Virus record (IMG/VR): IMGVR_UViG_3300030361_000015
Coordinates: 1-29,055 of that record
Reading direction: 5' to 3' (one strand)
Source of the DNA: a virus
Lineage: Duplodnaviria; Caudoviricetes
DNA length: 29,055 bases
Shown here: positions 11,531-27,314 of the stretch, in pieces
Position numbering within the stretch: the stretch's first letter is position 1
Layout of the letters: each line of letters starts with the position of its first letter
Program-made: the position numbers and the translations under genes
The notes under the pieces: model-generated
What the model saw: the letters and a program-made list of their open reading frames with translations, nothing else
Told to the model about the DNA's origin: nothing
Databases searched by the model: none

Positions 11531-13424
11531 AGAAATTTATCAACCACAAGTGTCCCAGATTAATTCTACGGTCACTCCTGAACAGGGGGTGGTTGACTCT
11601 GGGGCTGTTCAACTATTTACAGACGTAGCTCAGGTTGCTACAGAAGCTACTTTTGCTTTTACAAGGCAGGAGGAGTTATCAGAGCTTAGAGGTACATTTG
11701 ATAAGATAGTACAGGCAAGGCAGCAGGGAGGAGATTCCACCAAACTACAACTACGAGCAAGGGCAGCATTAGATAAAGCTAAGGCTAATACACCTTGGGC
11801 TGCTCAGGAAGCAGACGCTCTCTTCCGCTCAACATTTAGTGGGGGTGGTTCTGGTGGGGTCTTCTCCAAGACTCCTGAGGAGAAAGCGCAGGAAGCTCAC
11901 TTGCAGAAGGTAGAGGAGACTAGGCTAGCGCTTGGTCTTTCCTCTGCCGAGGAAGCTCAGAAGCGTATCACCTTAGAAGAGAATGCTAAGAGCGCTAAGA
12001 TTATGGCTGACTCTCAAAAGGAAGTGCGTAATTATAACAGTGAGCTTGTATTCTCTAACACACAAACGCAGTTGAATAACCAAAGTATTAAATTCATGGA
12101 TGCTATGAATCGTATGATTAATACTGGAGGTGGCTCACTGAGTGCGGATAATGTACGTTCTATTAACTTAACAGTTGACCAAGAGGCTCTAAGGCTTAGG
12201 CAAGAGCTTAACGCTCAAACTCGTGACCCTAAGACTGGCCACCTGCTTATCTCTAAAGATGGGTATGAGACTAACTTAAAAGAGATTGAGGATTGGGTTA
12301 CTGAGACTAAGGCTATGGCTGCTGACCAAGGCTACCTTAAGTTGATTCAAGAGCTCAACTCTGAGCAATCTGCTGAGATTAACTTTATAGCCAACAATAA
12401 ATACAGGGTGATAAAGATTTTAGAAGCCGCTGGTGGTCAAGCCCATGTAAAAGCTTTCTTGGATATTGCCATGCAACCAGAGGGCACTAAGAAAGAGTTC
12501 CTTAAAAAGTTCAGTAGCCCTATAGTACAAGAAATGTTCAAGCAGCAAGGCAGTTTTAAGGAAGCTAGCTCTACTGGTTTTGATAAACTTGTATTGCCAA
12601 CCCCTAACAACATCTTTATGACTGAGGCTGAGGCATACGCTACAGGCACAGAACTTAATGACCCACGTAACAGTGTGCTGTTAACTGCAATACTAGATGG
12701 TCTTACTACTGGTATAGGTAATGTAGACCCTTACATGTCGATGATTAAAAAGAATCCAGATAGCTCTGCTTTAACTTGGAGTGATAGATTTAAATCATGG
12801 GCGGCTAGCAATAAAGGTAAGGCTAAGACAGCACTAGACGCTACAGTGCAATCACTACGTACTTCTTTCTTATCAGCGTATGTATCTGACAATAGTTCTC
12901 TTCCAACTGACCTAGAGGTTGTTGATATTGAGGGCACTGATGTAGGCACTGGCAGGAATCGACGTAATGTACGTAATGTAACTAGGCGTAATGTTGTTCG
13001 TGGTACTGGCGTTAGTCCTGAGTCTGGTAAGATTATCTCTAATATGTTGTCAGTGTTTGTACACAATCCAGATTTCGCTAAGCAAACAGCTAGTGACTTA
13101 GGTATGGCAGGTGCTACGCCACATGAACTAGTTAAGGCTGTTATCATGGGAGCTCCTGAGGAAGCCCCTGAGGAGACTACTAGTGAAAGTGGTGCAAGTG
13201 TACCAGCTAAAGTACAAGAAGCTCCTGTAGAGCCAGTAGAAGAGCCTAAAGAGGATTTGAACGCTATAGCTTTAGAGAGGTATAAGTCTGCTATTGAAAG
13301 GGCTAATACACCGTTGTTAAGGAGTGAGGTTGATAAAGCTTTCCTTAATGGATTCTTTAAACGAGCAGAGGATGGGGGTGTTAATCTACCACCTAAGGGG
13401 GAGTCATCACAATCTCCAAAGTAA
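11523..13424 (+). CDS. internal virion (ejection) protein
   Basis: Likely TTG start at 11523 after GAGGAG; helical Ala/Gln/Glu-rich; acidic Pro-rich linker near the C-terminus. Confidence 0.6.
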   Translation: MSREIYQPQVSQINSTVTPEQGVVDSGAVQLFTDVAQVATEATFAFTRQEELSELRGTFDKIVQARQQGGDSTKLQLRARAALDKAKANTPWAAQEADALFRSTFSGGGSGGVFSKTPEEKAQEAHLQKVEETRLALGLSSAEEAQKRITLEENAKSAKIMADSQKEVRNYNSELVFSNTQTQLNNQSIKFMDAMNRMINTGGGSLSADNVRSINLTVDQEALRLRQELNAQTRDPKTGHLLISKDGYETNLKEIEDWVTETKAMAADQGYLKLIQELNSEQSAEINFIANNKYRVIKILEAAGGQAHVKAFLDIAMQPEGTKKEFLKKFSSPIVQEMFKQQGSFKEASSTGFDKLVLPTPNNIFMTEAEAYATGTELNDPRNSVLLTAILDGLTTGIGNVDPYMSMIKKNPDSSALTWSDRFKSWAASNKGKAKTALDATVQSLRTSFLSAYVSDNSSLPTDLEVVDIEGTDVGTGRNRRNVRNVTRRNVVRGTGVSPESGKIISNMLSVFVHNPDFAKQTASDLGMAGATPHELVKAVIMGAPEEAPEETTSESGASVPAKVQEAPVEPVEEPKEDLNAIALERYKSAIERANTPLLRSEVDKAFLNGFFKRAEDGGVNLPPKGESSQSPK

Positions 13425-13876
13425 TTAACTCAGAGGCTTCACAGATTGCCAAGGATGAGGGTACTGTCACTACTTTGATGGGCTCTCATAAATCCTACTT
13501 AGACTCTGAGGGACTATTAACTGGCGGTATTGGTCACCTAATGACTAAGGAGGAGCAAGCACAATATCCAGAGGGCACAAAGATTCCTGAGGAAGTTGTA
13601 CAAGCTTGGTTTGAAGAGGATTTAGCTGAGGCTGAAAAGGACGCTGAGATTCTACTTAAAGGGGTAGATGTGCCAGATGAGGTGAAGTCCATAATCACTA
13701 ACATGGCATTTAACCTAGGTCGCACTAGGCTCAGTAAATTCAAGAAGATGTTCTCAGCTATTGAGGTTGGCGACTACGAGACTGCTGCCAAGGAGATGGA
13801 AGACAGTAGGTGGTTTAATCAAGTAGGGGGCAGGGCTAGAAGGCTTGTATCTCGAATGGCTGGAGTAGATGGTTAA
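13406..13876 (+). CDS. T4-type (GH24) lysozyme / endolysin; probable non-canonical ATC start (13406 or 13412)
   Basis: IAKDEG...YLDSEGLLTGGIGHL matches T4 lysozyme Glu11/Asp20/Thr26; NMAFNLG, FKKM, SRWFNQV motifs; the catalytic Glu codon (13457) is upstream of the first TTG/ATG (13475/13478); in-frame TAA at 13394. Confidence 0.85.
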   Translation: MTISKVINSEASQIAKDEGTVTTLMGSHKSYLDSEGLLTGGIGHLMTKEEQAQYPEGTKIPEEVVQAWFEEDLAEAEKDAEILLKGVDVPDEVKSIITNMAFNLGRTRLSKFKKMFSAIEVGDYETAAKEMEDSRWFNQVGGRARRLVSRMAGVDG

Positions 13877-14316
13877 TGATTGAACTAGTAACTATGGCTG
13901 TGGGTAAGTTGTTTGGAATGGGCGAGACTTGGGTGGAGGCTAAGACTAAGCAAGCCACCGCCAAAGTTGAGAACAAGATTGCCCTAGAACAAGCTACCAC
14001 ACAAGCTAAAATAACAATTAAACAGAAAGATGCTGACGCTACAAATAACATTGATTTAATAGCGGTTAAGAACCATAGGTTTACTTGGACTGATGAATAT
14101 ATTAAGGTGGTATTCACTCTACCTTTTATACTAATGTTCTTACCTTGGACACAACCTTACGTAATCTCTGGTTTTACAGCTTTCACTGACTCCACACCTG
14201 AGTGGTATAAGTATGTGATATACGGTATTGTAATTTCAGAACTTGGGTTAAGGCGAATATTTATGAGACTATTTGATACATTAATGACATTAAGGACGGG
14301 TAAATTAAATGGCTAA
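13876..14316 (+). CDS. putative holin-like membrane protein
   Basis: Directly after lysozyme (TAATG); coiled coil followed by hydrophobic segments (WTDEYIKVVFTLPFILMFLPW, PEWYKYVIYGIVISELG). Confidence 0.55.
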   Translation: MIELVTMAVGKLFGMGETWVEAKTKQATAKVENKIALEQATTQAKITIKQKDADATNNIDLIAVKNHRFTWTDEYIKVVFTLPFILMFLPWTQPYVISGFTAFTDSTPEWYKYVIYGIVISELGLRRIFMRLFDTLMTLRTGKLNG

Positions 14317-14716
14317 TGCTTTATACGACAAAGGTCGTGAAGGTTTCCTAGGTGCGGATATCGCTTGGGATACAGATAATATTAAGACAGTGCTTGTAGA
14401 TACAGCAGATTACACTGTTAACCTAAGTACGCATCAATTCTTGTCAGACATTCCACTGGCAGCGAGAGTGGCTACAAGTGCTAACCTTACGTCAAAGACT
14501 ATCACAAATGGGGTGGCTGACGCTGCTGATGTAACTTACAGTGCTGTGAGTGGTGATGAGAGTGAAGCTCTGGTTATTTTCCAAGATACTACAGTAGATA
14601 GTACATCTAGGTTAATCGCCTACATTGACACAGCAACAGGCTTACCAGTTACACCTAACGGTGGTGATATCACTGTTGTGTGGGACAATGGCACTAACAA
14701 GATTTTCAAACTATAG
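14309..14716 (+). CDS. tail-associated structural protein
   Basis: Thr/Asp-rich beta protein ending LPVTPNGGDITVVWDNGTNKIFKL, a pattern recalled next to phage tail-fibre genes. Confidence 0.55.
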   Translation: MANALYDKGREGFLGADIAWDTDNIKTVLVDTADYTVNLSTHQFLSDIPLAARVATSANLTSKTITNGVADAADVTYSAVSGDESEALVIFQDTTVDSTSRLIAYIDTATGLPVTPNGGDITVVWDNGTNKIFKL

Positions 14717-14725
14717 GGAGGTTGA

Positions 14726-14899
14726 ATGGACTTTATTAAAACTTTATGGTACGCTTACAAAGTTAAGAGTTATGAGAAGTTAATTATTGTAGCTACTAAA
14801 CGAAGGGAAGCTATCAAAGCTAGGCAAGCTAAGTATACAGCCAGCCAAGAGAAATACAGAGAGTTACTTAAAAAATCTACAGGAGTGAAGGATGTCTAG
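14726..14899 (+). CDS. small basic hypothetical protein (57 aa, not in ORF track)
   Basis: SD GGGAGG, ATG 14726, MDFIKTLWYAYKVKSYEK...TGVKDV, TAG 14897-14899 overlapping the next ATG. Confidence 0.7.
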   Translation: MDFIKTLWYAYKVKSYEKLIIVATKRREAIKARQAKYTASQEKYRELLKKSTGVKDV

Positions 14900-15248
14900 G
14901 GCTGCCACTAAGCGAAGCATAAATATTGTTAATCACTTTGACAACACTAAAAAAGGCTGGGCTAATGTGACGGCTCAGTTCAATTCATCTGTGAATGAGG
15001 CTGTTCAATTAACGGCATGGATTCACGACAATGTTTTAAACAACAAGGGTGATATTAGTAATGAAGACAGGCAAGAGGATAGGGTTGAATTCCTAGAGAA
15101 GTTGACCTACCTTAAAGAACTAATTTCAAAATTAGATGATTGTCACGCTGTATACAGTGAAGACTTACAAGTATACCAAGATAACTACTCAAGTTTCGTC
15201 GCTAAGTATGGAATTAACATACAAGAAGTGGACTCTAAGTTTAAGTAA
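14892..15248 (+). CDS. hypothetical protein (possible tail-fibre chaperone)
   Basis: SD AGGAG; 118 aa helical; immediately precedes the fibre gene; function inferred from position only. Confidence 0.5.
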   Translation: MSRAATKRSINIVNHFDNTKKGWANVTAQFNSSVNEAVQLTAWIHDNVLNNKGDISNEDRQEDRVEFLEKLTYLKELISKLDDCHAVYSEDLQVYQDNYSSFVAKYGINIQEVDSKFK

Positions 15249-15257
15249 GGAGTTGTC

Positions 15258-16892
15258 ATGTCTTTTGATGGAACTCTATGGGGACGTAGAGTACAACTTA
15301 CTGGTATAACGCCTGTGGCAACTGCTACGGGCTTTGTCGGTTTGATCACTGCTGATAATATGCCTGCCGAAGTAATGGACGGTGGCGTAAATTCTGCGCT
15401 TAATGGTGGCGGTGATTTACGTGTATCAACTGATAACGCTGGCGCCAATCAAATACCGTTAGAGGTTGTTAATTTTGTAGTAAGCGGAACACCTTCACTC
15501 AGACAAGCTCAATTGTGGGTTAGGTTCCCCACTTACGAATCTGCAAACCGCTCATTGTGGTTGTTCTACAATCGCGCAGGACAAACACAACCACCTGTTA
15601 CTGATCCGTTCGGGCGTAATTCAGTGTGGCAAGATTTTGAAGCGGCTTGGCATTTTTCAAATGGAGATGATAGCACTGGTAACGGTTATGATTTAAATCT
15701 TGGTAGTGGGTTAACACAAAACACAAATTCAATAACCTTTAGCGGTGCAAATTCAAGCTCGCAAGCTACTTTTACAGAGTTAACGCAAGCAACAGGTAGA
15801 GTAAGAATACGGTTTAACCCTACAACCACAGGAAACGGTATATTTTCAGGAAGAAGCAGCACGACAAACAACTGGTTTGGTAATTTTAACGGTGGCATAA
15901 CGTACAGGCCACCTGATAGGGTAATAGGCGTTCGTTCTTTGCCAACTGCAAATGTAGATTATTTTGCAGAAGTCACAAATATAGGCGGTACCGCCAATCT
16001 TAAGGTTTTTGATTCGTCAGGCTCACAAGTTGGCACAACAATCACTGGTTCTAATCCTTCGGGAAGAATCACTGATATGTTTGGTGATTTTACTGCTAAC
16101 GGTGGTGTTAGGTTTGTTGGTGATTTAATTGAGTGCCATGTTAATTTAAACAATGATACTCAATCGCTGATAGACCTTGAGCTTTCAAACCAATCATCAC
16201 CAAGTACATTCTGGACAACAGGAACTCCAGAAGATACAGGTGGCGGAAGTGGTGGCGATACAATATCTCCAGTAGGGGTATTCTCCGCAGAAGCTTTCGG
16301 AACTGTAGGTGTAAGCGTTGGTGGGGTGCTAGTGTCCCCAAGCAGTGTTAGTTCTCTAGAACAAATACCGCAACCGCAAGTAGTGTCCTCAGGAGTGTTG
16401 TTATCTCCGTCAGGTATACCATCTGGCGAGGTGATTAATCTGCCTACCATACAAGTAGGGGATTACGCATTACTACCTGTTGGTATTGGGAGTGCAGAGT
16501 TGTTTGGTAACCCCTTAATATCTGCTGGAGGCTTAGAATTACTTCCAACTTCAATAAGCAGTTCTAGTAGTTTCGGAGTGCCTGCACTAGTGTACGCACA
16601 AGTAGTTCAAACTGTAGGTATAGGTAGTAAAGAAGTGTTTGGGTTGCATATAGTTAGTGACGGGGAAGCTTTATTAATACCTCTGGGGGATAGAGAAACT
16701 TACCAGAAGCTAGCAAACTACTTGAGAAGCACTGGGAGGTTTGTCAGTGAACAAAACAATGACATTATTATTGAATGGCTAAGGTCTGAATTACTTGAGA
16801 GCGGTCAGTTTAATGATTTGTTTATGGAGTATTGGAACAGGGCTGGGTTAACTGGGGCTTATAACGATAGGTGGAAGAAGTGGAGGAGTTAA
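15258..16892 (+). CDS. tail fibre / receptor-binding protein (DUF2341-like + lectin-like N-part, 23-aa repeats, C-terminal helical domain)
   Basis: SD TAAGGAG; GGDLRVS...IPLEV...LWVR...LWLFY is DUF2341-like; VWQDFEAAWHF...DSTGNGYDL and FVGDLIE are LamG/ConA-like; Gly linker then six repeats. Confidence 0.65.
   Translation: MSFDGTLWGRRVQLTGITPVATATGFVGLITADNMPAEVMDGGVNSALNGGGDLRVSTDNAGANQIPLEVVNFVVSGTPSLRQAQLWVRFPTYESANRSLWLFYNRAGQTQPPVTDPFGRNSVWQDFEAAWHFSNGDDSTGNGYDLNLGSGLTQNTNSITFSGANSSSQATFTELTQATGRVRIRFNPTTTGNGIFSGRSSTTNNWFGNFNGGITYRPPDRVIGVRSLPTANVDYFAEVTNIGGTANLKVFDSSGSQVGTTITGSNPSGRITDMFGDFTANGGVRFVGDLIECHVNLNNDTQSLIDLELSNQSSPSTFWTTGTPEDTGGGSGGDTISPVGVFSAEAFGTVGVSVGGVLVSPSSVSSLEQIPQPQVVSSGVLLSPSGIPSGEVINLPTIQVGDYALLPVGIGSAELFGNPLISAGGLELLPTSISSSSSFGVPALVYAQVVQTVGIGSKEVFGLHIVSDGEALLIPLGDRETYQKLANYLRSTGRFVSEQNNDIIIEWLRSELLESGQFNDLFMEYWNRAGLTGAYNDRWKKWRS
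16263..16655 (+). repeat. six ~23-aa degenerate protein repeats (xxPxGIxSxExFGxP)
   Basis: ISPVGVFSAEAFG / VSPSSVSSLEQIP / LSPSGIPSGEVIN / LLPVGIGSAELFG / LLPTSISSSSSFG / VQTVGIGSKEVFG at 23,23,23,23,22 aa spacing. Confidence 0.75.
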
Positions 16893-16898
16893 TGAGGT

Positions 16899-17237
16899 AT
16901 GACAAATAGCGCTGTGCAGTGGGTGGGAGTTGGTCTCACCTCACTTGTAGTGATAGGCGGTAGTATTGCGGCTTATGTAGATGTTAAGAGTGATATTGCT
17001 GTGGTTGAGACTAAGCTAGACCAAAATAAGGAAGATAAAAAGGAATTAGATAAGTACGATAGCTACTTACAGAAACAACTAGATGAGCATGGTGATAGAC
17101 TTCTTAAGACGGAAGCCAAACAGGAGGGCATTGAGAAAACACAAGATAGGTTAGAACGCACTATGGATGAAATCCTGAAAGAGATGCGAACCATGAACGA
17201 CAATATTATTATTTTAACTGAAAAAGGAAAAGATTAA
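16899..17237 (+). CDS. membrane-anchored coiled-coil protein (possible lysis accessory)
   Basis: N-terminal TM (WVGVGLTSLVVIGGSIAAYV) followed by a long coiled coil. Confidence 0.6.
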   Translation: MTNSAVQWVGVGLTSLVVIGGSIAAYVDVKSDIAVVETKLDQNKEDKKELDKYDSYLQKQLDEHGDRLLKTEAKQEGIEKTQDRLERTMDEILKEMRTMNDNIIILTEKGKD

Positions 17238-17296
17238 TGTCAGACGACCCAAAGAAAAAGACAGATGACGCTGACCCTAAGAAGAAAAAGGATTGA
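17237..17296 (+). CDS. putative 19-aa micropeptide MSDDPKKKTDDADPKKKKD
   Basis: TAATG overlap with upstream stop, AAGGA SD, TGA just before the terminator. Confidence 0.4.
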   Translation: MSDDPKKKTDDADPKKKKD

Positions 17297-17299
17297 TGT

Positions 17300-17340
17300 A
17301 AGAGGGGGAAGGGCAGTACAAGCCCCTCCCCTTTCTTTTT
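17300..17340. terminator. bidirectional terminator between the convergent arms
   Basis: GGGGAAGGGC-AGTACAA-GCCCCTCCCC stem (one mismatch) then TTTCTTTTT; lies between convergent stop codons. Confidence 0.8.
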
Positions 17341-18301
17341 ATAGGACGTTCATACGTAAGGTAGCACGCTTCTCTTTAGATAAGAGGTTAGTCCTTCCCC
17401 TACTCTCACTACCACAATTAGTACAACGATATCGCTGGAACTTAGATAAGTTCGTATAAGCGAAGCCATCCTTGACAAACTCAGTACTGCCACATTTACA
17501 TGTGATTCCCAAATCGTCATTATATAAATTGAAGTTAGGCAGTTTGTTATCCCACGGAGATAATTTGTAGTATAGCTCTTCTAGGGAAAGTACATCATAC
17601 CTGTTATATTCCTCCATCTCATTCCAAGCATCTAGATTACCTGCTAGACATTCCTTCCACAATTCAAAGCCGGGGAATTTACCGTGCTTAAGCTTCTTAT
17701 ATTTAGTATTTAACTGGTCAGTCATATACTCAAGCTTGTTACTAGTGAAAGCAAACTTACGCTTAGCTATAGCGAGAGTATCAATATGCTTATAAGAACT
17801 AGGCGGTTGAAACCCATTAATAATGAAACGTGCATTAAGTTTTTTACTATCAAACTTAATTCCATTCTGAGTGATAACCACATCAGCTTCATCCAGTAGC
17901 TTCCAAATACCGCGTAAGAGTTCAGCATCTTCCTCTAAGTTCTCCGCATGTCTGTTGTCTTGGTACATAACACCATCTTCACCCAACCACTTAGCTGACC
18001 AAGATAGGACATACCAATCTGTCTCTATTTGATTTAACCCAAACCCCTGTTGCCACATACTCCACATATAAGACAACATTGGAGCGGTCTCTATGTCAAA
18101 TACCAACACCCTAGGACTTCCTGTATGGCTCTTCAAGGGACTATCTCCTGCATCTCCTACCAAGCCCCTACGTTTAAGTACATAGTGCACTGTAGACGCT
18201 GCTGTACGCTTCCCGAATACAGCCTCAGATATATCCCTATGCTTAGTCCCTTTAATCTTGAGCTCACAAATGAGGTCTTCTTGTTCTTTACTAATACTCA
18301 A
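17339..18301 (-). CDS. DEDDy / RNase H-fold 3'-5' exonuclease with N-terminal HTH and C-terminal Zn ribbon
   Basis: VFDIET, QNGIKFD, YNRYDV Exo I-III motifs; CKCGS...CTNCG; TTG start after GGAG. Confidence 0.8.
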   Translation of the reverse strand: MSISKEQEDLICELKIKGTKHRDISEAVFGKRTAASTVHYVLKRRGLVGDAGDSPLKSHTGSPRVLVFDIETAPMLSYMWSMWQQGFGLNQIETDWYVLSWSAKWLGEDGVMYQDNRHAENLEEDAELLRGIWKLLDEADVVITQNGIKFDSKKLNARFIINGFQPPSSYKHIDTLAIAKRKFAFTSNKLEYMTDQLNTKYKKLKHGKFPGFELWKECLAGNLDAWNEMEEYNRYDVLSLEELYYKLSPWDNKLPNFNLYNDDLGITCKCGSTEFVKDGFAYTNLSKFQRYRCTNCGSESRGRTNLLSKEKRATLRMNVL

Positions 18302-18313
18302 TACACAATCTCC

Positions 18314-18586
18314 TTAAAAACCACCATTTTGAATAATTAATTGGTCTAGGTATTCGCGAGCCTTAAGTAGGTCTTCTAGGCCATTCTTATTTTTATACCT
18401 ACACACGTACTTAATTACGTTACCTTCGTTAAAGCCCAAGTTATTTTTGTTAATAAAGGTTAGTGGTGGGATAGGCATATTGTAGTGGAGGGGTTTAGTC
18501 TTAGCGCTAGACTCCGCCTTTAACAGCCTATCACTACGTTCATTAATTTCCTTGTACCAGCTTCCCCTGTCATAGTGCTCAGGCAT
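18314..18586 (-). CDS. DUF3310 (T7 gp1.7-like) protein
   Basis: PLHY...GFNEGNVIKYVCRYKNKNGLEDLLKAREYL signature. Confidence 0.8.
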   Translation of the reverse strand: MPEHYDRGSWYKEINERSDRLLKAESSAKTKPLHYNMPIPPLTFINKNNLGFNEGNVIKYVCRYKNKNGLEDLLKAREYLDQLIIQNGGF

Positions 18587-18891
18587 TAGTGCATACTCCT
18601 TCTTGGCACAACATCGGCTTCAACATTCTGCTGGAAGCTCTTGCCCACGGTACCTTGCTCAATCTCCTTACGTACTACCTCAGCACCACGAGCAGCGATG
18701 TACTGGTACATTGCATACATCTGCATACGTTCAAGCTCACCTAAGCATTCAGCATATTCCTTAGCGAAGTTAGTTTCCTTATGCTGTGAGTTGATGTTAA
18801 AAAGAACTACGCACCGGTTCCAAGTGCGTAACGTAACGTCTTCAACGTCATTAAATAAGCTATAGCCTTTGTAATTGTTTTTATTCGCCAT
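18586..18891 (-). CDS. hypothetical protein
   Basis: 101 aa, overlaps both neighbours, SD GGAG. Confidence 0.65.
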   Translation of the reverse strand: MANKNNYKGYSLFNDVEDVTLRTWNRCVVLFNINSQHKETNFAKEYAECLGELERMQMYAMYQYIAARGAEVVRKEIEQGTVGKSFQQNVEADVVPRRSMH

Positions 18892-19744
18892 TATTTTCTT
18901 TCTCCTGCTCTTTACGAGTTCTTATTTGTTCTTTAGTTGGACTTGGTTCAAGCTCAAAAGCTTCCTCAATAGTCCAGTTATTGTTTAATCTGTAACTTAT
19001 GGTTGACCTATTTACCTTAAGAAAATCAGCCCACTCTTGTAGAGTTAACGTGACTCCCTCGTACTCTATGTAGACATTCCTCCTAGTGTTATTAGATTGA
19101 ACCTTGTGAGTAGTCCACCTACAGTTGTCAGGTTCATAATCACCTTCTGGGTCAACCCTGTCTAAAGTAGTGCCGTCTGGTCGGGCACCTAGGTCATTAT
19201 AGAAGTTGATAAAATCATCCTCCCAAGACTTGCATACTTTAATACCCCTCCCACCGTAGTAATCATAGTCAGATTTATTAGGGTTACTGCACCTACCCTT
19301 CATAGCTACATAACAAGGGTACTCGTTGGGGTGTGTTTTATAGTAGCCCCTCCTCCCTTTTGCCACAGCCTTCTCCCCGTTAGTCTTAACTTCATGACAG
19401 TCTCCGCAGAGTAATTGCAAGTTGTCAAGCTCTGAGAACATACGTTCTATGCAGTCGTCCCAAGTAGTCCAACCTATGGAGGGGTCAACTATTGGGTTAA
19501 TATGGTCAACGTGAATATTCTTCTTACGTCTTCCGTTTTCGTCTTTAATGCTGGCTGGAACCTCAGCCCCACAACCAGCGCATTTATATAAGCCACGCTT
19601 AACTCTAGCTTGTTTCTGACATAAACTAATTGGAGCCCATTTCATTGTAGCTCGTCTTAGGTTACCTTTAACAAATGACCTGAACTTAGCCTCAGTCCAT
19701 GTATTGTTACAACGTGTCTTCTCTCCACCTATTCTACCAGCGAT
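18881..19744 (-). CDS. double-HNH endonuclease; probable ATC start at 19744
   Basis: Domain 1: CAGC...HVDHINP...NLQLLCGDCH; domain 2: AMKGRC...YGGRGIKVC...TLDRVDPEGDYEPDNCRW; frame is open 33 codons upstream of ATG 19645 to ATC behind GAGGT. Confidence 0.8.
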   Translation of the reverse strand: MAGRIGGEKTRCNNTWTEAKFRSFVKGNLRRATMKWAPISLCQKQARVKRGLYKCAGCGAEVPASIKDENGRRKKNIHVDHINPIVDPSIGWTTWDDCIERMFSELDNLQLLCGDCHEVKTNGEKAVAKGRRGYYKTHPNEYPCYVAMKGRCSNPNKSDYDYYGGRGIKVCKSWEDDFINFYNDLGARPDGTTLDRVDPEGDYEPDNCRWTTHKVQSNNTRRNVYIEYEGVTLTLQEWADFLKVNRSTISYRLNNNWTIEEAFELEPSPTKEQIRTRKEQEKENNGE

Positions 19745-19745
19745 A

Positions 19746-20096
19746 TTAATACCTCACAACTTGGACTAGTAAACCCTTTTCTAGTGCAATATCAATCATA
19801 TGTTTAGTGCCCTTAGACTTTCCATCCCAGAAAGCTACTAGCATCTCAGAGTGATTAGCCATGTCAACATTACGCCTATAACCCGCGGACTTACCGTACT
19901 CATCCCACTTGGCAGGGAACACCCTAACTCTGAGGTCATTTTCCCTGCCCCACAACTCTCCAAGGGCGTCCGCACCCTTCGCCCCACCTGAAACTACGGT
20001 GATGCAATGAGCTAACCTGTCGTTCAAGAAGTCCATCTCCTCTTCCAGCAAGCTATAATTATTAAAGTCACGACCACCTGCAATAATAACTCTCAT
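19746..20096 (-). CDS. SLOG-family (DUF2493 / YpsA-like) protein
   Basis: RVIIAGGRDF, VVSGGAKGAD, AGYRRN, AFWDGKSKGT motifs. Confidence 0.85.
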   Translation of the reverse strand: MRVIIAGGRDFNNYSLLEEEMDFLNDRLAHCITVVSGGAKGADALGELWGRENDLRVRVFPAKWDEYGKSAGYRRNVDMANHSEMLVAFWDGKSKGTKHMIDIALEKGLLVQVVRY

Positions 20097-20221
20097 ATCT
20101 TACAAGCCCCGCCTTCACAGCCTTCATCTTCATCACTTTCAAACCTCTCCACTTCGTAGTCAGGTTCTTCAACCTCTAGACCATCGAATAGTGTGAAGTC
20201 CATCTCATCTTCTTTAATCAT
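20093..20221 (-). CDS. 42-aa acidic microprotein ending GCEGGACKI (RNR-alpha C-terminal tail-like; not in ORF track)
   Basis: SD GAGG, ATG 20221, MIKEDEMDFTLFDGLEVEEPDYEVERFESDEDEGCEGGACKI; ATGA overlap with the SLOG gene; fills the gap exactly. Confidence 0.75.
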   Translation of the reverse strand: MIKEDEMDFTLFDGLEVEEPDYEVERFESDEDEGCEGGACKI

Positions 20222-21155
20222 TCAACCTCTCATCAAACATTTTATAATGAATTAAGTTACCGTCATCGTCAACTTCCTTGACCATCCAAGCTAGTTGACA
20301 TTGCTCTAACATCTCTTCCCTACAAGTTTCTTCTCCGTAGAAGTCCCTGTAAGCCCCTAGGACGGCTTCAAATAACTCACCCTCACTATCACATTCATTA
20401 AGTAGTTTAAAGGCTTTAACGTCCCCACAGCGTGGTAAGCCGGGGTAGTCATCAGTCTTGTCACCAGTCAACACTTGTGAATAGAAGAACTTCAAGCCAG
20501 TGCCAGAGAGTTTATTCCTGCCAGATAACTTAATCTCACCTACACCATCTACACGAGTTAGTGGAAACTGTGGTTGCTTGCCACAAGCCCAACCGAAGTG
20601 CATCCCTTCTATAATCTTTAAGTCCTTGTCACGAGAGCAGATAACTGTAGTTAAAGGTTTAGCTGCCGTCTGGTGAATAGCTAGTAAGTCGTCAGCTTCA
20701 CACCCCTCAGCTACGATAACTTCACGAGTAGCACATACATAAGCTACTAAGTTCTCATAGTGAATAGGTCGTGGATTCTTACGACTACCTTTGTACACTT
20801 TCTTCTTAGCTACATCATCCCTGAAATTAGGGACATACTCACTTGGTTGATAAAGCTCTACCATATCTTTAGCAACATCATCGAGTGGATTCTCCTCAGC
20901 ACGCTTACTGGCACGCTTAAGGGCTTTAGCTTTCTTCTTCTCTCTTGCTTTATGTAACTGAGCGTTATTAGTCATAAAGAATAGGCTAGGTTCAGTTGCC
21001 CAAACCTCTGCCTCAATCTCTTTAACTTTGTCGTCGAATGCCTTAGATACATTGTCAAATGGTTTGGCAACTATCTCTTGTAACTCTTCGTCAAAGTATT
21101 GACCAATACTACTAATCTCATAGAGCAATATGTCTAAATCAATTAGGCACTTGAT
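20214..21155 (-). CDS. 5'-3' exonuclease (T7 gp6 / FEN-like); probable ATC start at 21155
   Basis: YKGSR, EADD, SRDKDL, GDKTDDYPG motifs; N-terminal CLIDLDILLY with its Asp residues lies upstream of TTG 21128. Confidence 0.85.
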   Translation of the reverse strand: MKCLIDLDILLYEISSIGQYFDEELQEIVAKPFDNVSKAFDDKVKEIEAEVWATEPSLFFMTNNAQLHKAREKKKAKALKRASKRAEENPLDDVAKDMVELYQPSEYVPNFRDDVAKKKVYKGSRKNPRPIHYENLVAYVCATREVIVAEGCEADDLLAIHQTAAKPLTTVICSRDKDLKIIEGMHFGWACGKQPQFPLTRVDGVGEIKLSGRNKLSGTGLKFFYSQVLTGDKTDDYPGLPRCGDVKAFKLLNECDSEGELFEAVLGAYRDFYGEETCREEMLEQCQLAWMVKEVDDDGNLIHYKMFDERLND

Positions 21156-21445
21156 GAATCACCTTCCTCAGCAAAATCTGCTTCTAGTTGAGCGTATAAC
21201 TTCTCCTGCTTAGTTTTACTTACAGCCCTTAAGTTAATACCATCCATAGTTAACGGTTTGCTGACAGCATCTACATGCCCATCCTTGACAAACGCTGCAA
21301 TGAATAGCTTACGCATAGCATACGGGTCGTCATCACCTACATGTACTACTGTATCGCCAGCTAAGTACATTAAGTCACCTTTCTTAACCCCGTAGTCTAA
21401 GTAGCGGCTGCTCTTTACTGTTACAAATTGACCCACTTCTAACAT
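21143..21445 (-). CDS. hypothetical protein
   Basis: SD GAGGA; 100 aa. Confidence 0.7.
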   Translation of the reverse strand: MLEVGQFVTVKSSRYLDYGVKKGDLMYLAGDTVVHVGDDDPYAMRKLFIAAFVKDGHVDAVSKPLTMDGINLRAVSKTKQEKLYAQLEADFAEEGDSSSA

Positions 21446-21485
21446 ATTTTAAGTCCTCTCTTCTTTGTTGTTTAAATCTATTAGA

Positions 21486-21517
21486 TAGGCTGAGCGGTCT
21501 CCCGCTCGGTAACCTAT
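21486..21517 (-). promoter_or_regulatory. stable stem-loop with GAGA tetraloop after the SSB-like gene
   Basis: Minus strand ATAGGTTACCGAGCGG-GAGA-CCGCTCAGCCTAT; no clear U-tract. Confidence 0.5.
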
Positions 21518-21535
21518 AAGAATGTTTATAGAAGA

Positions 21536-22261
21536 CTACCACGGTTGTTGGTCTTCTGGGTCGTCGTTAACCTCTGGCTCTGATTCATCATTAACCTCAG
21601 GTTCAGGTTGTGGTTCTGGCTCTTTCTTTTGCTCAGTCTTGCCATCAAGTAGTCGTTGTAACTCACTACCATTGTACTCAAGGTTAGATTTAATCTTATC
21701 TTGAATCCACTCAGGTAATGAACGGAATACATCAAGGTCAGGCTCACTAACAATAAACACTTTAGGGTCATTGACCAGTGGGGCAGCCTTAGCAGCTTCC
21801 TTAGCACGCATTGGAGCAACGTTAGCTACATTATTAAATGTACGACCAGCGTTCTTGCCTTTACCCGGTGTGGCTGTAATAGTCACCATGCTAGGTGTAC
21901 CCATCAGTTGAGTGAAGTCACCATCATGCTCTAGGTTAGGGTCAAGAGCTTTGTAGCGCTTAGTTGAAGTAGCTAAGTCTACATCTAGGTTGTTTAAGGT
22001 GATGGTCTCGCCAATCCAACGTGGCTTGTCTTCAAGCTCCTCTCCATTCTCGTCAACACAGAACTCATCTAGTAGTTCATACGTTAACATAACCTCTTGC
22101 TTAGGTGGTTTCTCGTTACCATCCCAAGCCTTTTGTGGTTGTAAACCTAAGTCGATTAGTTGAACCAATCGGTTAGGGTATGTGCCAGCGTCTACTGCCT
22201 CTTGTGGTGCAATCTTCTTACCGCCGCCATTCATAGCTACTTTCTTTACATTTAAACCCAT
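21536..22261 (-). CDS. putative single-stranded DNA-binding protein
   Basis: In the replication module; beta-rich core and acidic C-terminal tail ending in an aromatic residue (…EPEVNDDPEDQQPW). Confidence 0.55.
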   Translation of the reverse strand: MGLNVKKVAMNGGGKKIAPQEAVDAGTYPNRLVQLIDLGLQPQKAWDGNEKPPKQEVMLTYELLDEFCVDENGEELEDKPRWIGETITLNNLDVDLATSTKRYKALDPNLEHDGDFTQLMGTPSMVTITATPGKGKNAGRTFNNVANVAPMRAKEAAKAAPLVNDPKVFIVSEPDLDVFRSLPEWIQDKIKSNLEYNGSELQRLLDGKTEQKKEPEPQPEPEVNDESEPEVNDDPEDQQPW

Positions 22262-22262
22262 A

Positions 22263-22667
22263 TTACTTGCCCTCTTTATTAAGCATATCCATTATAATTA
22301 ACTCTAGCTCTGGGTCGAACGTACCATACTCGTCAGGTATATCCAACTCTGTTACTGGCGTCACACCCAGTAAATTTAAAGCCTCTAATAGTTTCCGAAC
22401 TACCACAACTTGCTCTGACACTACGTAGATTTCATCAGCCCACACAAGTAAAGCTTCGCTTATCGGTACTAGTGCGTACTCCTGACTGGTGCCACAAGCC
22501 CTTGTGTTATACCCCAATTGCGTTAACAACTTGGCTATGGTTGGACTTCGTAGCAAACCAGCAGAGCAAACACACAGGGCTTTCTTGCTATTTCCTTGAT
22601 ATGGGTTGGTAACATTAGCTAGTTGATTCCTACTAGCCCTTGGCATTGAGTAATTATCCACCATCAA
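22263..22667 (-). CDS. low-molecular-weight PTP / ArsC-fold phosphatase-like protein
   Basis: ALCVCSAGLLRS (CX5RS P-loop), WADEI, LDIPDEY general-acid loop; start uncertain (22664 or 22646). Confidence 0.75.
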   Translation of the reverse strand: MMVDNYSMPRASRNQLANVTNPYQGNSKKALCVCSAGLLRSPTIAKLLTQLGYNTRACGTSQEYALVPISEALLVWADEIYVVSEQVVVVRKLLEALNLLGVTPVTELDIPDEYGTFDPELELIIMDMLNKEGK

Positions 22668-22752
22668 TCTCCATCAATTGTTGTTCTAGTTCTTCTATCT
22701 TTTGTTTGTGTTGCTCGATAGCTTCCTCCAAAGCCTGAGCCTGTTTAATCAT
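22654..22752 (-). CDS. 32-aa coiled-coil microprotein
   Basis: ATG 22752 after GAGAG: MIKQAQALEEAIEQHKQKIEELEQQLMEIDGG; the longer track ORF overlaps the upstream gene. Confidence 0.5.
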   Translation of the reverse strand: MIKQAQALEEAIEQHKQKIEELEQQLMEIDGG

Positions 22753-22798
22753 ATTCTCTCTATTTGCTAACACACCACAACAGGTGTGCTTAATCTGT

Positions 22799-23113
22799 TC
22801 ACTTAGTTTCAATTTCTTTAATCCTACCCTCAAGTTCTTGAACCTCTGCCTCCAGAGCATTGAGATTGTTCCTGCAATAAGCAATGGAATCTAACTTACT
22901 CTCCAGTCTATTCTTAAGTAGCTCCAGTTCGAGCTCATTACTGGCAGGAATTTTGTAAGTGAAGTACACCTCGTCCCCTTCATAAATATCAAAAGCTATA
23001 TCCTCAGCACCCTCGCCTTGAAGTTTAACTATTTCTCTTCTAATTAGCTCTAGGATTTCAAGAGGTTGCAACCCCTCACTAAGTGGTATAGCACAAGAAG
23101 TAGTAAGTATCAT
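22799..23113 (-). CDS. hypothetical protein with C-terminal coiled coil
   Basis: SD GGAG; abuts the polymerase stop codon. Confidence 0.65.
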   Translation of the reverse strand: MILTTSCAIPLSEGLQPLEILELIRREIVKLQGEGAEDIAFDIYEGDEVYFTYKIPASNELELELLKNRLESKLDSIAYCRNNLNALEAEVQELEGRIKEIETK

Positions 23114-24982
23114 CTAATGTATCTCCGCATAACTATCTCCAAATTGAACGTCAACATCTAACGCTCTGTTAAGTTTTAATAATTCATTAACCTGACCTAC
23201 AGCCCACTTACAAACCTCAGTGGCTCTAGCTCTAAGCCCTTTACGAATACACGCTATAATTTCATCGTGCATCTGACCAATCAATGGCATTCCTTTACTA
23301 CGTACAAACTTCACCCACATATCAAAGCAATAGACACCAGTACCTTGGTTAAGTGTACTGAACCTATCTTTCTCGTGACGTAAGCTGTACCAGAATCGAC
23401 TCACTGGATTATATAACCACTTCTGCTTATTACAAACCTTAACGATTTGTGCCTCAGCAACAGCCTTAACAGCCCAGTTACGTTCCCAGTAAATCTCTAC
23501 TAACCTCTCCCCATCAGGAATAGAAATACCAGCAGCACGAGCCACAGTAGCCCCACCTGCCCCGTAAACACACGAATAATTCGTTTGCTTGGCTGTGCTT
23601 CTGGCTTCCTTGAGAGCCGAATACACTTTCGAGTGTTTGAATTTTTCATCTGCATTTTTAAATCTATCTCCATCAGCTTTCGACATCATACCTGCTTGTA
23701 CTGCGATATCAATGTGAGGGTCGAAGTCATCAGTCATCATTTCTTTGACGTATTCTGGGTCGTAGTCCCACATGTAGTGTTGCTTAGTGCGGTCTTCCAA
23801 GCTTGACATATCACTTCCAAGCAACTCATACCCATCTGGCGCAATGAGAGAACCACGAATATCAACACCATAAGGCTTATCCACACCGGGTAAATTAACC
23901 ACCACTTTGTGCTTGAAGCGTAACGTGTTCGTGAGTCCTTGAATTTGCGCCTCAATATATCCAGCATCATCAACGCTCTCCAAAAAACCTTTAAGTAATG
24001 AAATCCTATGAGTAAGTATTGATAACCCCTCCAATACTTCAAGCTTAGGTTCTACACCAAATAACCTCTTAATGCTTGGGCATATACCCTTGCCATGCTT
24101 AAGGTTTATTTGAGGTATTTTCTTTACGTCACCAGTTTCTTTGTTACGTTTAAACTCAAACGTTTCAGGAATCCAGCCGAAAGAATCCAACCATGCTTTT
24201 ATTTGAGGGGTGCTATTAGGATTAGGTTCCTTATAACTACTCACCACCTCAACTACTCCTTCATAATCCTCAGGTAAACCCTTCTCCTTTAACAGAGAGA
24301 ACCACCTCTCGCCTACAGCACTAGGTTCACCACTAAGTTTATAAGGCTTAGCTGGTCGAGTCTTCTTAGTGATTACAGGAACCTTAGGCATCACAGACAT
24401 TAACTCTGCAACCTTATCTTCCTTTATACCAACAAGTTTATTGTGTGCATTAGTGCAACGTTCTATGTCAAGCTTCCACTTGTTCTCTTCTTGCTCTCTT
24501 GCACAATCAATCTTGAATGACAGGTAATCAATGAATCTCCAAGCTTCCTCTTCACTGCCATATAGTTTAAGGAGTTGTTTCCACTGACGTTCCCACAACA
24601 GCGTATTGATTTTAACATCTTCTTCACAGCGGTGAATGTATTCTTCTGTGCTTAAGTTGTCCCAATCTTCTACCACTGGCTTAGGTACACCAAACTCCTC
24701 ACCATAGTCAGCTAGTCCATGCCTAGCCCTGTGAGGCTCTAGATACCACGAGAGGGCTAAAGTATCAACAAGACGGGCTTTCACCTTAATACCTAATAAA
24801 CGTTCCACTACGGGGACGTCATAGCGTATAATGTTATGCCCTATTAATACCTTAGCTCCACGAAAGAACTTACGCTGGTTCTCGTAGCTATCAGTGGAGT
24901 GAATACCACTATCCGTATTGACAGAGAGGCAATGAATCTTAGTAGGTTTAAGTCCATTAGCTTCTATGTCGAATACGTTCAT
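23114..24982 (-). CDS. polA: family A DNA polymerase with 3'-5' exonuclease (T7-like)
   Basis: FDIEA, GHNIIRYD, CEEDV exo motifs; GSDMSSLE (motif A), RSTAKQTNYSCVYGAG (B), QMHDE (C). Confidence 0.95.
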   Translation of the reverse strand: MNVFDIEANGLKPTKIHCLSVNTDSGIHSTDSYENQRKFFRGAKVLIGHNIIRYDVPVVERLLGIKVKARLVDTLALSWYLEPHRARHGLADYGEEFGVPKPVVEDWDNLSTEEYIHRCEEDVKINTLLWERQWKQLLKLYGSEEEAWRFIDYLSFKIDCAREQEENKWKLDIERCTNAHNKLVGIKEDKVAELMSVMPKVPVITKKTRPAKPYKLSGEPSAVGERWFSLLKEKGLPEDYEGVVEVVSSYKEPNPNSTPQIKAWLDSFGWIPETFEFKRNKETGDVKKIPQINLKHGKGICPSIKRLFGVEPKLEVLEGLSILTHRISLLKGFLESVDDAGYIEAQIQGLTNTLRFKHKVVVNLPGVDKPYGVDIRGSLIAPDGYELLGSDMSSLEDRTKQHYMWDYDPEYVKEMMTDDFDPHIDIAVQAGMMSKADGDRFKNADEKFKHSKVYSALKEARSTAKQTNYSCVYGAGGATVARAAGISIPDGERLVEIYWERNWAVKAVAEAQIVKVCNKQKWLYNPVSRFWYSLRHEKDRFSTLNQGTGVYCFDMWVKFVRSKGMPLIGQMHDEIIACIRKGLRARATEVCKWAVGQVNELLKLNRALDVDVQFGDSYAEIH

Positions 24983-25467
24983 GTAGTATCTCCAAACTCT
25001 CTAAGAATGTCAGACCTAAACCTGTAGACAATGGATTGAACTGTTGTCCTAGGTTGATTTAATATCTGACCTACCTCCCTCATGTTATATCCCTTAAAGA
25101 AATTAAGTTCAATGATATCTTTCACTAAACCCTCTTGGGTTTTTAAATAACCTTTAACCTTCTTAACTAAATCAGAGGAATAATCACACAGCTCATAAGT
25201 GGGCTCGTGCTTCTCCTCCATCTCGACAGACATACCACTAATACGTTCTTGCTGTCGATAGTTATTGAAAGCGTTGTTAGCTATTGAATAGAACCATTTC
25301 TCAATGGACTGACGCTCAGGGTTAAAGGACTTGTGGTATTTCAAGGCTCTAGTAAAAGCCTCTTGTACAATGTCCTCGGCAGCCTCGTGACTACCAGCCC
25401 TACGCTTGAAATAGTTAACTAGGTTATTATAATTATCTTTATAATATTGTTCTATTTGTTTATACAC
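24979..25467 (-). CDS. ECF-type sigma70-family factor
   Basis: Region 2 AEDIVQEAF...WFYSIANN; region 4 GYNMREVGQILNQPRTTVQSIVYR; GTG start after GAGGG. Confidence 0.85.
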   Translation of the reverse strand: MYKQIEQYYKDNYNNLVNYFKRRAGSHEAAEDIVQEAFTRALKYHKSFNPERQSIEKWFYSIANNAFNNYRQQERISGMSVEMEEKHEPTYELCDYSSDLVKKVKGYLKTQEGLVKDIIELNFFKGYNMREVGQILNQPRTTVQSIVYRFRSDILREFGDTT

Positions 25468-27122
25468 TAAACCCTCACTTCATTAAACAAGCCAGTCTTC
25501 CTGTCCCAGAATAGCTTAACCACACCACTTTCACCGAATTCACGGTCAGCAAGCATGACTAACTCACGCATATTCTGTTCATTCTCACTTAGCTCTGGGT
25601 CTTTATTACCTTGTAAGCCAATGGCATAGTTACAACTACGTGCCATAGCACTACTACCTGCGAAGTAGTCAGTTGTAATCTTACCACCCCTATCCCAAGG
25701 TGTAGCACCCTTTGGTGGTTTATTTAAATGGCAGAAGAACGCTATGTGAATATCTAAATCCATTGCCATAGCAGCAGCCTCTTGTGCAACACCTTTCAAA
25801 TGTGCATCAATGTCACTGTGACCCATGCCGTTAGTCAGGTTGGTAATCGGGTCAATGATTACTAACTTAACACCCTCAGCTACGGCGGCTAAGATATCTA
25901 ACTTAAGCGAATCCCAACCAATGTGTTGGTAGAGGTTTAACATGCAAAGATTATTCCTTACAATAGCTCCACCACGTTCGTACGCCTCACTGTCAAACTC
26001 AACTGTAGGGTCATGGAAAATCTTACCCGTCACTTTACTCAACACCATCTTGTAGGTCTTATTGTTAGCCTCCTCAGGCTTAGCAACCATCACCTTTAAG
26101 TTGTGCTCTTCTATAAAGTGGGCTGTAAGAGCGTTGACAACCTCACTCTTACCCATTTTCTCACCAGCAGCCCAGTAGCTAGTCTCCTTGAACCGAAGAC
26201 CTCGCATTATCTTGTTCAAGCCGTCCCAAGGGAGACTTAAACCCCACTGTGCAGGTTCTTTAGCTTGCTCATGTACGTCACCACCCCATACTAACCTAGA
26301 GTTTTTCTGTTTTTGTGCGTTAAACATGATAGCTTTGAACGCTGCCTTACCGCAGGTCTTAATGCACTCATTACCATCCTTGGCAGGGAGTGGGATTACT
26401 GTAGCCTCAGGGAACACTTTGCAAGCTTCCTCTGTTGCCTTTCGACCTGCTTCATCTTGGTCAAAAGCAAAAGAAACTTCCTTAAAATGCTTCCTAATTT
26501 TACTAGCCAGTCTAGCTAAGTCTTTACCAGCGCTAGCAGCTCCATGAGGTAGAGATACAGGATAAGGCATGTAGTCCTTATACTTCTCTTCTGTGTAGAT
26601 TTGTAGAATCTTCCACAGGGATGGTGCATCTAGCTCACCCTCGACAATGATTAATCGCCTAGCGCCTGACTTAATAGCCCCTTCCCAACCAAATAGGTCT
26701 ACGTTACGTTGGTCACCTACTGACCACATTTTCTTACCTTCGACAAGCCTAGTCTTATATGACTTTAAGACCCCATCCTCAGTGTACGGATAGAAATGGT
26801 AAGCAGGTGTCTTACCATCCTTCTCACTGAATCCAATCTTAATGCCATACTCTTCAAGAGCATCCTTACGTAAACGTCTATCTACTAAGTCCACTGCACC
26901 TAACTCAGAGATTTCTTTTATACGTTCTTCTACTTGCTCCCTACTAAGACCTAGTTTCTTGTCTGGGATATCTTCAACCTTACGTTCTTCTCCATAGGGA
27001 TTTGGTACATACGTGTCACATGCAAAGCAGTAACCATTCGCTACACCATTCTCCCCCTCAAAGACCTGTAAAGCATCAGATGTGCCACAACTGTGACCGA
27101 TTTTATCAATACATCTACCTAT
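25467..27122 (-). CDS. T7 gp4-like primase-helicase; probable ATA start at 27122
   Basis: Zn domain HSCGTSDA...YCFAC (upstream of GTG 26894), TOPRIM IVEGELDA and FDQDEAG, Walker A AGEKMGKS, IIDPIT, HLNK; ATA behind TAAGGGGG with in-frame TAG two codons before. Confidence 0.9.
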   Translation of the reverse strand: MGRCIDKIGHSCGTSDALQVFEGENGVANGYCFACDTYVPNPYGEERKVEDIPDKKLGLSREQVEERIKEISELGAVDLVDRRLRKDALEEYGIKIGFSEKDGKTPAYHFYPYTEDGVLKSYKTRLVEGKKMWSVGDQRNVDLFGWEGAIKSGARRLIIVEGELDAPSLWKILQIYTEEKYKDYMPYPVSLPHGAASAGKDLARLASKIRKHFKEVSFAFDQDEAGRKATEEACKVFPEATVIPLPAKDGNECIKTCGKAAFKAIMFNAQKQKNSRLVWGGDVHEQAKEPAQWGLSLPWDGLNKIMRGLRFKETSYWAAGEKMGKSEVVNALTAHFIEEHNLKVMVAKPEEANNKTYKMVLSKVTGKIFHDPTVEFDSEAYERGGAIVRNNLCMLNLYQHIGWDSLKLDILAAVAEGVKLVIIDPITNLTNGMGHSDIDAHLKGVAQEAAAMAMDLDIHIAFFCHLNKPPKGATPWDRGGKITTDYFAGSSAMARSCNYAIGLQGNKDPELSENEQNMRELVMLADREFGESGVVKLFWDRKTGLFNEVRV

Positions 27123-27133
27123 AAGCTACCCCC

Positions 27134-27307
27134 TTATTTAACTAACTCAATGTCTTTAACGTCAGCGTAATGACCGAAGTTTTGCTGTTTCTTCCACTTA
27201 CGTACAGCCATGTGAGCTTTACTTTCACTTAAGAATATCTGTTGCTTAACTGTTACAGGATTACTGTCATACAGCTCTTGAAATGTAACTAAATATGCTT
27301 TACTCAT
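27134..27307 (-). CDS. 57-aa hypothetical protein (not in ORF track)
   Basis: SD AGGTG, ATG 27307, MSKAYLVTFQELYDS...VKDIELVK, TAA 27134-27136; fills the gap. Confidence 0.65.
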   Translation of the reverse strand: MSKAYLVTFQELYDSNPVTVKQQIFLSESKAHMAVRKWKKQQNFGHYADVKDIELVK

Positions 27308-27314
27308 GCATCAC

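Follow-up and report, generated by a model that had tools for sequence, protein, structure and literature searches.

Apparent ATA and ATC start codons on four enzyme genes of a Zobellviridae phage fragment and their recurrence across the family

The stretch of DNA analysed here (IMG/VR record IMGVR_UViG_3300030361_000015; 29,055 bases, 42% G+C, hereafter the window) is a fragment of a podovirus genome of the Zobellviridae type, related to phages PA11 and CW02. Four of its enzyme genes show ATA or ATC, codons of the type ATH (ATA, ATC or ATT; AUH in the mRNA), where an ATG would be expected. This raises the question whether these codons are the true initiation sites, what such weak starts would mean for the dose of the enzymes and whether they are controlled together, as proposed in a preliminary description of the window. 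The four genes and their Shine-Dalgarno (SD)-like sequences are the following:

25467..27122, minus strand: DNA primase-helicase, 551 codons from ATA 27122 (phrog_239, E 1e-136; Toprim, DnaB_C)
27129..27136, minus strand: SD-like TAAGGGGG of the primase-helicase, 6 nucleotides (nt) ahead of the ATA, duplex energy -12.6 kcal/mol
20214..21155, minus strand: 5'-3' exonuclease (FEN type), 313 codons from ATC 21155 (phrog_107, E 5e-52; Pfam 5_3_exonuc)
21159..21169, minus strand: SD-like GAGGAAGGTGA of the exonuclease, -9.6 kcal/mol
18881..19744, minus strand: HNH nuclease from ATC 19744, the first ~135 amino acids conserved in the family
19751..19755, minus strand: SD-like GAGGT of the HNH nuclease, provided by the last codons of a SLOG gene, -6.9 kcal/mol
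13406..13876, plus strand: T4-type (GH24) lysozyme in the endolysin slot (PF00959; matches to T4 lysozyme and gp5)
13394..13403, plus strand: SD-like TAAGGGGGAG, -10.5 / -8.9 kcal/mol, a possible SD for the ATC start or a possible stimulator of -1 frameshifting at a site 12 nt further on

The arrangement that had been described for these genes, an SD-like sequence, an in-frame stop and an ATH codon, was confirmed for each of them. The in-frame stop lies 2 codons upstream of the ATH in the primase and exonuclease genes and 4 codons upstream in the HNH and lysozyme genes; the reading frames of the latter two comprise 287 and 156 codons if counted from the ATH. A scan of the whole window for ATH codons ≤6 codons from an in-frame stop, with no canonical codon between, an SD energy ≤ -5.5 kcal/mol and ≥60 open codons returned 7 sites, of which five belong to the four genes (two to the lysozyme) and the two others have a canonical start 2-6 codons downstream.

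The first ATG, GTG or TTG beyond the ATH is reached at codon +76 of the primase (GTG 26894), +9 of the exonuclease (TTG 21128), +33 of the HNH nuclease and +23 of the lysozyme (TTG 13475, followed by ATG 13478). Initiation at these codons would remove H10, G13, C32 and C35 of the primase (invariant in 11/11 sequences) together with its N-terminal Cys/His motif of the zinc-binding type, D6 and D8 of the exonuclease (15/15), F24 and R30 of the HNH nuclease (117/117 aligned matches) and D20, E21 and G22 of the lysozyme (10/10). The preliminary description had placed essential motifs upstream of the first canonical codon in three genes; this holds for three, but the number was too low, conserved sequence being found upstream in all four. 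We take the Cys/His residues of the primase to bind zinc, the aspartates of the exonuclease to form part of the FEN metal site and the glutamate of the lysozyme to be equivalent to E11 of T4 lysozyme. The PDB alignments of the lysozyme and the exonuclease began downstream of these invariant N-terminal residues, and the catalytic role of D6 and D8 is therefore presumed from their invariance and from general knowledge of FEN chemistry. In an alignment of orthologues, suggested beforehand as a check, the ATH codons of the primase, exonuclease and HNH genes fall on position 1, which is ATG in the orthologues, so that the start position is matched for these three genes; the codon of the lysozyme has no orthologue that fixes it.

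Start codons were then classified in 33 gene families at 253 loci (10 GenBank genomes, the remainder from IMG/VR), with near-copies merged into clusters at ~90% protein identity. A start was termed strict ATH if no ATG, GTG or TTG occurs back to the upstream in-frame stop and if the SD energy is ≤ -5.5 kcal/mol. Strict ATH starts were detected in 6/87 primase, 10/104 exonuclease and 7/100 HNH clusters, hence in 23/291 in total (20/288 without the window), as compared with 2/506 in 13 structural and packaging families (Fisher p 6.5e-9) and 5/663 in 16 other early and middle families (p 1.4e-8). These denominators include 8, 4 and 17 ambiguous calls, respectively; a few strict HNH calls lie 6-9 codons off and are less sure, and the likely ATH starts of the CVT22 HNH gene and of L029 and L122 were left out with a canonical codon nearby. 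GTG and TTG are enriched in the primase, exonuclease and HNH genes as well (53/260 versus 20/500, p 2e-12). The G+C content does not separate genomes with ATH starts (0.431, n=29) from those compared with them (0.445, n=83; p 0.28).

Independent support comes from a class-II amidotransferase, which is absent from the window and carries ATC or ATT directly before Cys2 in 8/41 clusters (loci L110/L264, i.e. phage O4, as well as L126, L134, L137, L141, L143, L156, L157, L158, L162 and L168). The nucleophile of class-II amidotransferases is a free N-terminal cysteine, and because Cys2 has to come to stand at this terminus the ATH codon must supply a removable methionine. The gene starts with ATC in phage O4 and with TTG in PA11. 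ATH starts are thus also present in cultured phages, namely ATC on the O4 amidotransferase and ATT on the CW02 exonuclease, and among the Zobellviridae CW02, O4, T2S2 and KZY1 likewise show them; in the number of ATH starts per genome the window exceeds every sampled relative. As a separate case, the DNA polymerase of L014 appears with an ACG start behind a very strong SD.

ATH starts arose repeatedly in unrelated lineages. FastTree phylogenies required 10 changes for the 10 ATH rows among 99 exonucleases (500/500 shuffles as low), 5 changes for 6 ATH rows among 86 primases and 5 changes for 7 ATH rows among 31 amidotransferases, the last tree carrying long-branch warnings. The nearest relative of the window has ATG on both the primase and the exonuclease. 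The choice of codon differs between the families: exonuclease (10/10) and amidotransferase (8/8) use ATC or ATT, the primase ATA in 5/6 cases, and this family-specific choice leans towards selection.

The local context of the ATH starts is distinctive, too. Their SD pairing is stronger (median -10.3 kcal/mol, n=26, versus -6.6 kcal/mol, n=159; p 9e-7), a strong SD core precedes 29/31 ATH as compared with 103/226 ATG starts, and the spacing between SD and ATH across the family is 5-9 nt. An extended pairing 3' of GGAGG towards the start was not enriched (1.81, n=29, versus 1.80, n=103; p 0.82). The base before the ATH is a pyrimidine in 25/31 cases and never G (ATG starts: pyrimidine in 72/226); without stop overlaps the bias amounts to 25/30 versus 72/129 (p 0.006) and concerns one base only. 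Since the excess is mainly C, it is not explained by a pairing of A37 of the initiator tRNA with U. In five of the ten exonucleases with an ATH start, the overlap with the upstream gene measures exactly 13 nt, as it does in the window (upstream gene 21143-21445); the arrangement resembles an ATGA stop-start overlap from which the G was lost. ATA, with which that stop would be kept, is never used by the exonuclease. In the primase gene of the window the SD-like TAAGGGGG contains the TAA stop of an upstream gene of 57 amino acids.

The codon and its position, the lack of a usable canonical start, the recurrence, the bias towards certain enzymes and the stronger SD are observed; judged from these sequence features, we consider it most probable (about 0.66) that AUH codons act as weak initiation codons behind strong SD sequences, are read by the unmodified host ribosome and set a low dose gene by gene. 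The SD would park the host 30S subunit such that the AUH comes to lie in the P site, where the initiator tRNA could read it on an otherwise ordinary ribosome, and the discrimination exerted by initiation factor IF3 would reject most complexes, leaving ~1-30% of the output of AUG according to published reporters. In these reports AUH yields 1-2% of AUG (bioRxiv 10.1101/063800), 5-7.5% in a phage murein hydrolase and ~15% in a T4 rIIB mutant (PMC5499595) and ~10-30% at natural Staphylococcus aureus sites (PMC13009471). ATH would then represent the bottom rung of a dial ATG > GTG/TTG > ATH along which the genes move independently. A low output from ATH starts is likely but not certain. The lysozyme, taken for itself, probably uses the same device.

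Several observations weigh against this reading. The share of ATH and the share of GTG/TTG are weakly correlated across 28 families (rho 0.31, p 0.11), and forced ATH starts also occur on a capsid cluster (L195, ATC) and on a cluster of the structural protein gp205 (L221, ATA). In vitro, AUA was a good competitor of AUG, and infC is expressed at a fairly high level (PMC5499595), so that, together with L195 and L221, ATH need not mean a very low output. The counts cannot separate selection for a low dose from tolerance of a low dose. All three genes are present in 71 units: 56 of these lack ATH starts, 13 have one, one has two and the window is the only one with three, at 0.04 expected, the window having been selected for several ATH starts; its subclade is mildly enriched in ATH even without it (4/18 versus 16/267, p 0.03, post hoc). 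The triple ATH and the enriched subclade hint at a lineage or host effect.

On these same two observations, i.e. the three to four ATH genes of the window and its subclade, a switchable regulon could be based, in which discrimination by IF3 is reduced, either by the phage or under conditions such as cold or a certain growth state, and all ATH genes are de-repressed together. It could further draw on the fidelity of IF3 being described as temperature-sensitive (PMC5499595), on the AUA-dependent output of ccpN, which varies with the medium (PMC13009471), and on the propagation of M13, which is blocked by IF3 overexpression (PMC2268962). However, in a co-occurrence test of 161 genome units, in which the few ATH genomes give low power for weak co-occurrence, ATH on both genes outside the window was found in 0/78 genomes for primase and exonuclease, 0/74 for primase and HNH and 1/92 for exonuclease and HNH (p 0.43-1.0), and the joint presence of non-ATG starts in the primase and HNH genes (raw p 0.03, one of 15 tests) lost its significance in independent pairs (median p 0.51). 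The ATH genes share no extended SD and combine middle genes with the lysozyme, a late lysis gene on the opposite strand; on the trees ATH switches on and off gene by gene, and within the 29-kb window (of ~49.5 kb) neither a tRNA nor a translation-factor family that might act as such a switch was detected. A coordinated regulon de-repressed through IF3, as considered in the preliminary description, is hence not supported and appears improbable; of the throttling by near-cognate starts proposed with it, the initiation itself and the bias towards low-dose enzymes are supported by comparison, the joint de-repression is not. There is only a slight chance that the AUH starts sense the initiation stringency of the host, such that a lower ratio of IF3 to ribosomes or a lower fidelity during infection, in the cold or with growth state raises primase, nucleases and lysin together. 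If this were true, the lineage of the window would have shifted most of its dangerous enzymes to such starts.

Sequencing errors, pseudogenes or a changed code with ATA and ATC read as Met would be a trivial source of ATH starts, and the window is indeed a metagenomic fragment whose bases were checked against assembled contigs only. However, the same codons are present in independent contigs: the IMG/VR contig L021 (97.5% identical across the exonuclease region) has the same ATC on both the exonuclease and the HNH gene, and contig X2, which belongs to a different sample of the same study, shows full identity over 13000-17169 including the lysozyme, with 10 differences to the window within 24324-27500. 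The primase ATA is the same codon in relatives at 47-65% identity, all four frames are intact and of full length, and the cultured phages CW02 and O4 have ATH starts as well. A changed genetic code was rejected on the basis of internal codons, of which ATA, ATC and ATT align with Met in 2-5% and with Ile in 45-53% of cases, as compared with 44% Met for ATG. A phage tRNA, considered as well, is not encoded in the window. An artefact is therefore very improbable. Real but unselected ATH starts deserve somewhat more attention: enzymes needed at low levels, with a strong SD and a tight coupling to the upstream gene, might survive the loss of the G and later revert. In line with such drift, ATH lineages are mostly tree tips with ATG sisters, the strong SD could be a precondition and not a compensation, and in the three genes the majority of ATH starts overlap an upstream stop or are no more than ~15 nt away from it. 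On the other hand, the ATC and ATT of exonuclease and amidotransferase are transversions, the transition product ATA never being used there, whereas the primase favours it; the GTG/TTG-rich genes thyX (0/28) and sigma (0/77) are devoid of ATH, and the HNH ATC is common to proteins of 70% identity (L022). Taking this into account, drift seems rather unlikely as the explanation.

For the lysozyme the weak-start reading has a competitor of its own, which involves the following neighbouring features:

11523..13424, plus strand: internal virion (ejection) protein, likely TTG start, its end overlapped by the lysozyme frame in the -1 frame
13416..13424, plus strand: CCA AAG TAA with an NNA_AAG hexamer, the last codons of the internal virion protein gene, candidate -1 frameshift site
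13876..14316, plus strand: putative holin-like protein directly 3' of the lysozyme (phrog_2524, a family of unknown function)

Instead of an ATC start, a -1 slip at CCA AAG could produce a virion protein of ~784 amino acids that ends in a lysozyme domain, perhaps in addition to a product initiated at ATC. Relative to the virion gene the lysozyme lies in the -1 frame, which stays open over the final 28 nt of that gene, and the hexamer before the virion protein stop, with the SD-like motif 12 nt upstream, belongs to a known class of -1 frameshift motifs (Bacillus subtilis cdd, IS1222; PMC5009743). Four close lysozyme homologues (54-58%) are C-terminal domains of proteins of 754-861 amino acids, a size which the 633+151 codons of virion protein and lysozyme would fit, and the virion protein is homologous to the N-terminal 560 amino acids of T2S2 ORF39 (E 1e-18), a single open reading frame of 800 amino acids annotated as endolysin. 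Against a frameshift, the nearest relatives L177 and L025 have a separate ATG-started lysin between the virion gene and the holin-like gene, and the slot is similarly occupied by a separate lysin in L184, L077, L084 and PA11; two of two tested long homologues lack significant similarity to the virion protein (best E 0.02-0.09). NNA_AAG shifting is described as low level (PMC5009743), the window has CCA AAG and not CGA AAG, and a weak hairpin is all that is predicted downstream of the hexamer. The lysozyme has two candidate ATC codons behind the strong SD, 13406 and 13412; the former has a pyrimidine at -1 in agreement with other ATH sites, and its distance of 4 nt to the best SD register falls slightly short of the 5-9 nt seen in the family. 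The site thus remains a frameshift candidate, with synteny favouring a separate gene. Judged from the sequence context, initiation at ATC alone is the rather probable reading and the frameshift a possible but less likely one. There is also a slight chance that one SD serves both purposes here, with a free endolysin initiated at AUC and a virion-bound version made through the -1 shift that it drives.

The slot itself appears to be variable. The nearest relatives carry a different lysin there and one distant relative (T2S2) is fused, whereas contig X5 of another study is free of indels at the junction and keeps the offset of the lysozyme frame. Run X6 has 674 other bases in place of the entire lysozyme and the final ~76 codons of the virion protein (13195-13874), the two being swapped as one module. 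When close relatives of the lysozyme were sought together with their gene neighbourhood, the matches were limited to 32-55%, none of them at the same junction. The holin label, which is inferred from position and hydrophobic stretches, is putative, and the two closest homologues of this protein (L025, 54%; L177, 50%) come after an ATG-started lysin of the peptidase type.

The upstream context of the HNH gene is variable as well, due to an additional gene:

19746..20096, minus strand: YspA/SLOG-family gene (PF10686), optional insert just upstream of the HNH gene

This gene is missing from the contigs X2, X5 and X6 (three runs; joint 19745-20095). In L021, which also lacks it, the HNH gene gets a perfect AGGAGG SD and the ATC is kept, as read base by base, so that the ATC is retained in two different upstream contexts; it is common to L021, L022 and L052. 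The HNH protein matches phrog_3106 with residues 10-135 and phrog_3377 with residues 138-283. Its second HNH domain is joined in frame (18907-19421), and the contigs X5 and X6 have 75 other letters instead; this domain is likely a mobile homing-endonuclease insert. A similar HNH fusion was seen in T5S1. The HNH genes of L004, L024 and L025 have N-terminal extensions with a TTG start, and in their subclade weak starts change place between primase, exonuclease and HNH.

According to profile searches the plus strand of the window carries the structural genes (capsid, tail, two internal virion proteins, lysis) and the minus strand those of replication (primase-helicase, sigma-like factor, family-A polymerase, exonucleases, HNH). 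The best tblastn matches of the primase are all Zobellviridae (T2S2 63%, PA11 57%, CW02 56%, CVT22 50%) and 11/11 fetched records of relatives carry this classification. With the named members (Paundecimvirus PA11/O4, Salinovirus CW02, Citrovirus CVT22) the window shares gene order and proteins at identities of 50-63% for the primase and 61-79% for the capsid; based on the closest core-gene matches and the common gene order the phage is assigned to the Zobellviridae. Near-identical DNA was detected in four oyster metagenome runs, all of one study; no RNA data set was among the matches, which says nothing about expression. The same lysozyme is encoded on a 49.5-kb contig, from which we conclude that the genome is ~20 kb longer than the 29-kb window. 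Strain contigs join across two small genes (22263-22664 and 22799-23113), which are thus optional. Among the structural genes, the tail B gene is followed by one for a GNAT acetyltransferase (6335-6799), a position shared by several relatives. Further weak starts in the window are the TTG of the internal virion protein at 11523, the TTG of an RNase H-like exonuclease at 18301 and the GTG of the sigma-like factor (25467). Scans of the window revealed no excess of promoters (27 versus 32.7 in shuffles) or terminators (8 versus 10.9).

AUH initiation itself is known. In Escherichia coli infC and pcnB start with AUU and show the low-level or IF3-sensitive initiation proposed here, but each of them is a lone host gene whose start codon is conserved, and infC forms an autoregulatory loop (10.1101/063800, PMC5499595), while the phage enzymes toggle between ATG, GTG, TTG and ATH across lineages. 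S. aureus ccpN (AUA), cvfC1 (AUU) and citZ (AUA) combine AUH with strong SD pairing and reduced output; these sites, mapped by Ribo-Ret, rely on an extended start-proximal SD (PMC13009471), whereas the phage ATH starts, which are inferred, have a stronger core and no extension. In Enterococcus faecalis the true ATT start of ebpA attenuates expression and the annotation had used a downstream ATG (PMC4447247), though this concerns one bacterial pilin gene and not several enzymes of a virus family in which the trait recurs. Phage AUH initiation in vivo, at a few to ~15%, is described for mutant AUA and AUC starts of T4 rIIB and the HB-3 murein hydrolase (PMC5499595), while here ATH would be the sole natural start of replication enzymes. 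The product of pcnB is toxic if overproduced, and gene 26' of phage T4 has an AUU start, which is an internal one; the latter case was not retrieved by our literature search. This search, which covered Creative Commons-licensed PubMed Central articles and bioRxiv with subscription journals outside its scope, found no report that describes AUH starts for Zobellviridae or their repeated occurrence on replication enzymes of phages. The convergent use of such starts across a family is apparently undescribed.

If the true start is ATH, gene callers truncate these enzymes before their key residues. The lysozyme of the window is recorded as a product of 132 amino acids without the invariant Glu (P0016), GenBank starts lie 49 codons past the ATH in the CW02 exonuclease and 19 codons past it in the KZY1 primase, the record of the O4 amidotransferase begins 36 codons past the ATC with Cys2 lost, and the T2S2 HNH gene has no annotation in its record.

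AUH makes up 0.004-0.024% of annotated bacterial starts (PMC5499595) and is deemed very rare in bacteria, yet ATH accounts for 7-20% of the orthologue clusters in four enzymes of these phages. Natural pairs of ATG, TTG and ATH alleles in cultured phages, such as ATC in O4 versus TTG in PA11 on one and the same gene, make the purpose of non-AUG starts directly testable.

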